A stretch of 39,812 bases of DNA from Thermoanaerobaculales bacterium (GTDB lineage: Bacteria; Acidobacteriota; Thermoanaerobaculia; Thermoanaerobaculales; Sulfomarinibacteraceae): NCBI GenBank assembly GCA_025456385.1, contig JALOKS010000007.1:1-39812 (forward strand), in the 5' to 3' direction. Position numbers and translations under genes: made by a program. The notes beneath the pieces were generated by a model, which worked only from the letters and a program-made list of their open reading frames with translations, did no database searches and had not been told where the DNA came from. Shown piece by piece: positions 16,676-19,138 of the stretch; positions within the stretch are counted from its first letter, which is position 1, and the number at the start of each line of letters is the position of its first letter.

Positions 16676-19138
16676 ATGAGCGAAGCCGAGGCCCCGCCGC
16701 GCAGCGACCGTCTGCCCGTGACCATCGAGGACGAGCTCAAGAGCTCCTACCTCGACTACGCGATGTCCGTCATCATCGGCCGCGCCCTCCCGGACGTTCG
16801 GGACGGCCTCAAGCCGGTCCACCGCCGCATCCTCTACGGAATGTGGGAGGCCGGCAACACCGCGTCCCGGGCGCACAAGAAGTCCGCGCGCATCGTCGGC
16901 GACGTCATGGGCAAGTACCACCCCCACGGCGACCAGGCGATCTACGACACCGCCGTGCGCATGGCGCAGGACTTCTCCATGCGCTACCTGACGCGCCTCG
17001 CCGAGGAGATGCTCGGCGACGACATCGGCAAGCAGACCGTCGACTGGGCACCGAACTACGACGGCTCCCTCGAGGAGCCCACCGTCCTGCCCGCGCGCTT
17101 CCCGAACCTCCTCGTCAACGGCTCTTCGGGCATCGCGGTCGGCATGGCGACCAACATCCCCCCGCACAACCTGCACGAGATCGTCGACGCCTGCGTCGCC
17201 CTCCTCGCCGATCCGGCGCTGACAGTCGCCGAGCTCATGAGATTCGTGCCCGCCCCGGACTTTCCCACCGCCGGCTTCATCCTCGGCCGCAAAGGGATCC
17301 GGGACGCCTACACGAGCGGCCGGGGGATCATCCGGCTGCAGGCGCGGACCGCCATCGAGGAGGCGGAGAAGGGCAAGCGCGCGGCGATCATCGTCAACGA
17401 GCTGCCCTACCAGGTCAACAAGGCGCGGCTCGTCGAGCAGATCGCGAGCCTCGTGCAGGCCAAGCGCCTGGAAGGCATCGCGGACCTCCGTGACGAGTCG
17501 GACCGCGAGGGCATCAGGGTCGTCATCGAGCTCAAGCGCGACGCCGTGCCCGAGGTCGTGCTCGCGAACCTCTTCAAGCTCACCCAGCTGCGCACGACCT
17601 TCGGCATCATCCTCCTCGGGGTGGTCAACAACCAGCCCAAGGTCTTCGACCTCAAGGAGCTCCTCCAGCACTTCCTCGACCATCGCCGCGAGGTCGTGGT
17701 GCGCCGGACCACGTACGACCTGGAGCGGGCTCGCGAGCGCGCCCACATTCTCGCCGGGCTGGTCATCGCGCTCGACCATCTCGACGAGGTCATCGCGCTC
17801 ATCCGCGGCGCCGCCGACCCGGAGTCCGCCCGCGACGGCCTGATGAGCGAGTTCGGGCTCTCCCAGCTCCAGGCGCAGGCGATCCTCGACATGAGGCTGC
17901 AGCGGCTGACCGGTCTCGAGCGCGACAAGATCCTCGCCGAGCACGAGGAGGTCACCCGCCTGATCGCGCACCTCCAGGCCGTGCTCGAGTCCGATGAGCT
18001 GGTGGCGGCGATCATCGTCGAGGAGCTCGCCGAGATGAAGAAGCGCTTCGGCGACAGCCGCCGCACGGAGCTCGTCGACGACCCGCAGGAGATCTCCATC
18101 GAGGACCTCATCGCCGAGGAGGACATGGTGATCACCGTCTCGCGCGGCGGCTACGTCAAGCGCTCCGCCGCCTCGTCCTACCGCGCCCAGCGCCGCGGCG
18201 GCCGCGGGCGGCGCGGGATGGCGACCAAGGAGGAGGACGAGGTCTGGCAGCTCTTCGTCGCCTCCACCCACGCGACCATGCTCTTCTTCACCTCCTCGGG
18301 GAGGGTCTTCGCGCGCAAGGTTCACGAGCTTCCGGACGCCGGCCCGGCGGGCCGCGGCCGCGCCCTCGTCAACCTGCTGCAGCTGGCCCCGGACGAGCAG
18401 GTGCGGGCGCTGCTCGCGATCCGCGACTTCGCCGAGCACGACGACGCGTTCCTCTTCTTCGCCACCCGTCACGGTCGGGTCAAGCGCACGCCGCTCAGCG
18501 AGTACTCGAACATCCGGGCGAGCGGCCTGCGGGCGGTGGTCGTCAACGAGGACGACAACCTGCTCTCCGTTCGCCTCACGCACGGCCGGGGTCACATCTT
18601 TATCGGCACCAACCGCGGCATGGCGATCCGCTTCCCCGAGGACGAGGTCCGGCCGATGGGGCGCGTCTCCGCCGGCGTGCGCGGCATCAACCTCAGGGAC
18701 GGCGACTTCGTCGAGGAGGTGGCCGTGGTCGACGCGGACGACCTCGGCGAGATCCTGGTCGTGACCGACCAGGGCTTCGGCAAGCGCACACCGATCTCCG
18801 AGTTCCGCCTGCAGGGCCGCGGCGGCTACGGCATCACGCTCGCGCGCCTGACCGACAAGAACGGCAAGGTGTCGGCGATCCGTCATGTCACCGAGGCCGA
18901 CGAGATCCTGGTGGTCACCGAGAAAGGGATGCTGATCCGCATGAGTGTCGCCGAGATCCGGCGCTCGGGCCGCGCGACCCAGGGCGTGCGGGTCATCCGC
19001 CTCGACGAGGACGACCGCGTGGTCTCGCTGGCGCTCGCGGAGCCGGCGGAGGGCGCCGGCGAGGGCGATGGGGGCGACGTCGGCGGCGCGCCCAGCGCCG
19101 ACGATGAAGCCGATGGCGCCGGCGGCGCGGACGCCTGA
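16676..19138 (+). CDS. gyrA: DNA gyrase subunit A, atypical: open frame but missing the segment that normally holds the catalytic tyrosine
   Basis: 820 aa. [63 protein letters not shown], GyrA box QRRGGRG, a beta-pinwheel CTD and an acidic tail. The ATG directly abuts the gyrB TAG. After DFSMRY(104) the frame continues with LTRLAEEML, skipping about 26 conserved residues (see findings). Confidence 0.85.

Follow-up and report, generated by a model that had tools for sequence, protein, structure and literature searches.

A gyrA gene without its catalytic-tyrosine block in one Thermoanaerobaculales assembly, most probably an artefact of assembly or a dead allele of single occurrence

The gyrA gene of the window (the whole stretch of DNA analysed here, 39,812 bp long, which is the complete contig of a public Thermoanaerobaculales MAG) really lacks 26 codons, including that of the catalytic tyrosine, as was confirmed at the protein and at the DNA level. 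Most probably we see an artefact of the assembly, or else a dead allele of single occurrence, and not new biology. We estimate at roughly four in five the probability that it is a one-off event, private to one assembly, which does not represent the working gyrA of the organism and which originated as an artefact or by the capture of a non-propagating molecule.

The gyrA ORF (16676-19138, plus strand) encodes 820 aa and is full length apart from the internal 26-codon gap. The protein is matched exactly by the NCBI record MCU0232607.1, 'MAG: DNA gyrase subunit A [Thermoanaerobaculales bacterium]', in which the gap is already present. By translation, codons 102-104 read ATG CGC TAC (16979-16987) and are followed directly by CTG ACG CGC CTC, which encodes LTRL, so that the protein passes from AQDFSMRY into LTRLAEEML immediately after Tyr104 (TAC, 16985-16987). 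In phmmer alignments to PDB chains, residues 13-106 match E. coli GyrA 9-102 and the alignment restarts at residue ~105, equivalent to E. coli ~127. Nothing in the protein corresponds to E. coli residues 101-126, and the catalytic Arg-Tyr pair (R121/Y122) of the AAMRYTE loop in the winged-helix domain is lost with them. The Arg-Tyr dipeptide that is still there, R103-Y104 of the FSMRY motif, aligns with the non-catalytic E. coli R99-Y100. The profile comparisons place the loss at the same point: the window GyrA matches PF00521 with 472 bits in two stretches, whereas an intact sibling protein does so with 547 bits in one, and a hole at profile positions ~96-120 is seen both in this match and in those to the NCBIfam gyrA equivalogs. 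The equivalog scores (NF004043, 1109.3 bits with a cutoff of 902; TIGR01063, 1071.2 bits with a cutoff of 877; two stretches each) lie about 92 bits under those of the intact sibling protein P0001 (1201.9 and 1162.8 bits, respectively, one stretch each), and still exceed both whole-protein cutoffs. Scores against the ParC equivalogs remain under their cutoffs, and the features that discriminate GyrA from ParC are both found, namely the GyrA box QRRGGRG at residues 505-511 and the repeats of the C-terminal beta-pinwheel (PF03989, five stretches, 245 bits).

The initial annotation had claimed that about 26 residues (78 nt, in frame) were missing after Tyr104, and on this point translation, phmmer and HMM matches and DNA alignment agree; its coordinates, its residue numbering and its list of conserved motifs (N-terminal motif, QRRGGRG and CTD blades) are all correct. 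The alignment to curated GyrA sequences and to the PF00521 HMM that it had proposed yields split matches with the gap around residue 104. A misalignment by eye, with the block in fact present, is refuted by the direct translation, by the HMM and pairwise alignments and by the 78-nt gap in the DNA.

The gene is the ordinary gyrB-adjacent gyrA at the primary orthologous locus, because the canonical replication-origin cluster dnaA-dnaN-recF is located upstream. These three genes (10473-14289, plus strand) have the order and lengths found in the sibling contigs, with zero indels relative to them, and the complete plus-strand order dnaA-dnaN-recF-gyrB-gyrA, gyrA being contiguous with gyrB, matches that of the siblings. 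The gyrB gene (14282-16675, plus strand) encodes an intact protein of 797 aa with HATPase_c, DNA_gyraseB, Toprim and DNA_gyraseB_C domains, found identical in four other contigs by exact protein search, and its stop codon abuts the gyrA ATG (16675/16676). Domain matches and the gene order and lengths of the siblings thereby bear out the earlier statement that dnaA, dnaN, recF and gyrB are intact. The replication-origin neighbourhood also comprises, on the minus strand and from high to low coordinates, rpmH-rnpA-yidC-jag-mnmE-mnmG-rsmG-parA-parB-atpF/H, and downstream of gyrA the genes for a CPBP protease, pdxS/T, trmFO, xerC/D, a histidine kinase, smpB, uvrA and others are distributed over both strands. 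The window has a G+C content of 72.6%, and no second type IIA topoisomerase gene was found in its 39.8 kb. As a separate observation, a 703-aa ORF (27111-29222, minus strand) with a strong coding signal (GC3 = 0.95) and zero Pfam matches at E <= 1e-5 adjoins a HAMP/HisKA/HATPase histidine kinase (29279-31384, minus strand) and a DUF4390 protein.

The deleted segment comprises the 'wing' of the winged-helix domain, a beta-hairpin, together with the loop that bears the nucleophilic tyrosine. An A2B2 complex that has lost this tyrosine is unable to make the covalent 5'-phosphotyrosyl intermediate, and gyrase is essential in bacteria. Given the established knowledge of GyrA Tyr122, the translated product would be dead for cleavage and supercoiling; it would make no 5'-phosphotyrosyl link to DNA because both the wing hairpin and the catalytic Arg-Tyr are missing, and a genome with this allele as its only gyrA should be non-viable. 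In its general architecture the protein is like E. coli GyrA (PDB 6RKS), with winged-helix, tower and coiled-coil regions (PF00521) preceding a beta-pinwheel CTD with the GyrA box (PF03989), but it has no equivalent of E. coli residues 101-126, with their DGQGNFGS hairpin (the wing) and their AAMRYTE loop. It is also like canonical GyrA (NF004043/TIGR01063) in scoring above the equivalog cutoffs and in the location of gyrB-gyrA beside dnaA-dnaN-recF. The engineered Y122F GyrA chain (PDB 8QDX, AMRFTEIR) provides a parallel, since it equally has no nucleophilic tyrosine and is expected to have lost DNA cleavage. However, such point mutants keep the fold, whereas the predicted window GyrA misses an entire 26-residue substructure.

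The comparison within the species indicates that the gap is confined to the window. Conspecific contigs show 99.5-99.94% DNA identity to it, and the block is intact in 5/5 of the others that run across the site: two belong to sibling NCBI MAGs (L001, GCA_025490995.1; L002, GCA_025491015.1) and three to JGI metagenomes (L003, 3300037461; L094, 3300037458; and L095, 3300037408, the nearest to the window). Over window positions 1-21806, compared with seven conspecific contigs (L001, L002, L003, L084, L086, L087 and L088), the 78-nt gap is the sole indel of the window. Exact-protein look-up returned no sibling contigs for the downstream genes, and the conspecific comparison therefore covers 1-21806. 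A generally indel-prone assembly was discarded as a source of the gap, there being zero other indels in the window over these 21.8 kb. The intact conspecific alleles have the same neighbours, and outside the block their proteins are identical to that of the window or one residue off. P0001, the best database match, has 846 aa, that is 820 + 26, and otherwise carries one substitution relative to the window protein, H599Q; the JGI protein P0122 carries H599, the only amino acid at which the window departs from P0001, and equals the window protein plus the 26-aa block exactly. Outside the gap, the gyrA codons differ from those of L001 by eight synonymous changes and one non-synonymous, and from those of L002 by six and one. 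Judged from these counts, the rest of gyrA shows purifying selection, without decay or relaxed selection. Since the window GyrA and the intact P0122 agree completely outside the block, the event must be extremely recent, unless it is not biological at all.

The gap does not recur at larger distances in any of the collections searched. The block is missing in 0/120 of the nearest GyrA clusters (72-97% identity), all of which have DGQGNFGS...AAMRYTE, and in 0/80 loci of GTDB species representatives from related Acidobacteriota and other phyla; wing (DGQGNFGS) and loop (AAMRYTE) do not vary across relatives. The 90% identity cluster contains no other sequence with the gap, and the only block-less sequences near the window GyrA are its own protein and three N-terminally truncated fragments. 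Neither among JGI metagenome contigs nor among GTDB genome contigs did an exact 38-mer spanning the junction, or a codon-degenerate pattern of it, find a match, a search that has no positive control, the MAG of the window being outside both collections. Literature searches on the assembly, the JGI accessions and the protein accessions returned nothing, and those on gyrA in-frame deletions and MAG misassembly nothing relevant. Among the GTDB-based genomes, which include no representative of the species of the window, the top gyrA locus is 86% identical and bears the label 'Candidatus Sulfomarinibacteraceae bacterium'. The sibling contig numbers of GCA_025491015.1 exceed 11,000; together with the missing GTDB representative, the contig numbers suggest very fragmented, low-quality bins.

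At the DNA level, alignment against L001 and L002 resolves the gap as a single clean 78-nt deletion. The junction (16985-16989, plus strand) consists of the Tyr104 codon TAC and a 3-nt microhomology, CCT (16987-16989). Unlike the window, the intact conspecific alleles carry 78 extra nt, equivalent to 26 aa, and read ...GCGCTA[CCTCCTGGTC...GAGGTCCG]CCTGACG..., where the two breakpoints have only CCT in common; the BLAST blocks of the conspecific contigs overlap by exactly 16987-16989. In the intact alleles, moreover, the codons of the two MRY triplets lie within a perfect direct repeat of 11 nt, CCATGCGCTAC, whose copies are spaced by 66 nt (L001:10303-10313 and 10369-10379); the first copy corresponds to window 16978-16988. 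Slippage between the copies of CCATGCGCTAC would drop 22 aa and yet keep the catalytic RY-TE context. A repeat-mediated mis-join or k-mer repeat collapse was rejected, as it does not fit breakpoints that bypass CCATGCGCTAC and share only CCT. A deletion driven by a hairpin or other structure was likewise rejected, the intact 121-nt region folding no better than its shuffles (z = 0.41). As to a possible trimming within the contig by the submitter, aimed at an adaptor or contaminant, the 78 nt do not resemble an adaptor by eye, and the sibling MAGs, apparently of the same accession series, retain the segment. In a check for a chimeric contig, the SNP haplotypes of the seven conspecific contigs were mosaic throughout, with zero SNPs within about 350-550 nt of the junction.

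From the confinement of the gap to one assembly we infer that the allele is artefactual or non-propagating. The consensus of the assembly most likely captured a deletion-bearing path, and this path could stem from a library molecule (chimeric or template-switched), from a rare, defective copy of the genome, or from an error of editing or polishing after assembly. Breakpoints sharing only CCT fit microhomology-mediated slippage or template switching, either in vivo or in vitro. If the assembly was built from short reads, at least one sequenced molecule probably bore the junction, produced by slippage or illegitimate recombination in the genome or as a template-switch chimera in vitro, because a de Bruijn graph alone cannot make a join between points that have 3 nt of microhomology in common but no k-mer. 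Several findings weigh on the other side. The contig looks clean otherwise, which counts against an artefact, as does the in-frame length, although any non-selective origin would produce it with a chance of 1 in 3; furthermore, the secondary structure of the deleted DNA is unremarkable and offers no explanation for the jumping of a polymerase.

The initial annotation had left three explanations side by side: an assembly or consensus artefact, a recent in-frame deletion and a non-catalytic GyrA with the active copy elsewhere. The first two are jointly supported by a gap that is private to one contig and not found in any other conspecific one that spans the site, while an evolved non-catalytic GyrA is disfavoured. 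The alternative that survives best holds that the sampled population really has the deletion, as its majority allele, and tolerates it through an intact gyrA elsewhere, be it a second gene or polyploid copies, the dead subunit being neutral or mildly dominant-negative. This we judge unlikely. It would account for a contig consensus that has the deletion and for a junction probably present in the reads, as no k-mer is repeated at the breakpoints, and it agrees with the preserved frame and the intact neighbouring genes. But such an allele shows no history of its own, its protein being that of an intact conspecific outside the gap with eight synonymous changes to one non-synonymous; the five other conspecific assemblies are all intact, the window offers no second type IIA topoisomerase gene, relatives show no hint of close gyrA duplicates (each of the 80 related loci belongs to a different assembly), and the essential character of gyrase speaks against it as well. 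We consider it very improbable that one natural population of this uncultured Thermoanaerobaculales species has the deletion as a true allele of appreciable frequency, next to intact copies that polyploidy or a second gyrA would supply; if true, it would provide a natural, catalytically dead and possibly dominant-negative gyrase A subunit. A real and abundant allele of this type would be an unusual case of a dead essential topoisomerase subunit in nature, and nothing found points there.

An evolved non-catalytic or re-wired GyrA, acting as a DNA-binding or regulatory pseudo-enzyme or using R103-Y104 as a new catalytic pair, is scarcely credible: although an Arg-Tyr dipeptide is kept immediately ahead of the LTRLAEEML helix, frame, GyrA box and CTD are retained and the gyrA equivalog cutoffs are still passed, the gap is common to no relative at any distance (conspecifics, 120 clusters and 80 representatives), the wing and loop that it removes are invariant among them, the retained tyrosine is the counterpart of the non-catalytic E. 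coli Y100, there are zero adaptive or compensatory substitutions relative to the intact P0122, the codon differences from L001 do not show the divergence or relaxed selection of a paralogue, and the gene occupies the orthologous gyrB-gyrA locus beside dnaA. GyrA inteins insert at the catalytic-tyrosine site, and the anomaly of the window is like that of intein-containing GyrA (NF038098) in its position. Unlike these proteins, however, the window GyrA has a deletion and not an insertion, it scores 868.6 bits against an NF038098 cutoff of 1850, and the conspecific alleles are intein-free. An imprecise intein loss or an intein-type GyrA was discarded on the same grounds, no insertion being found in the window or in its siblings.

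On the preferred reading, an artefact or captured non-propagating molecule, the main value of the case concerns data quality, as MCU0232607.1 is annotated as gyrase A and passes the equivalog thresholds with its active site absent. Standard annotation does not reveal in-frame assembly defects such as the gyrA gap, which can mislead surveys of pseudo-enzymes and the use of gyrA as a phylogenetic marker.

Some minor features of the conspecific contigs were also recorded. The pattern of SNPs over 1-21806 is mosaic, window variants being common to different contigs according to the segment, with SNP clusters for example at 6838-7076 and 18388-18601, a picture compatible with the co-existence of recombining strains or with mixed-strain consensus sequences. 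L095 (Ga0392393_0025295) has 3 mismatches with the window in 4.9 kb and ends, with the block intact, at window position 17054, just 68 nt beyond the deletion site. An end so near the site might point to low coverage or to a branch of the graph there in that sample, or may be a coincidence, 68 fitting no usual k-1 value. Finally, the comparison of conspecific contigs showed one indel besides the gyrA gap: L085 (GCA_025491015.1, JAOQIA010006136.1) contains at 11487-11525 a 39-nt in-frame tandem duplication, with the unit ...GTCGAGGCGGACACCCTGCGCGCCG..., in the gene of the ATP synthase b-subunit (atpF), which corresponds to window ~1027-1052 and is private to this contig, the window, L084 and L086 being without it. 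Therefore, in-frame indels, real or artefactual, occur also elsewhere in this assembly set.
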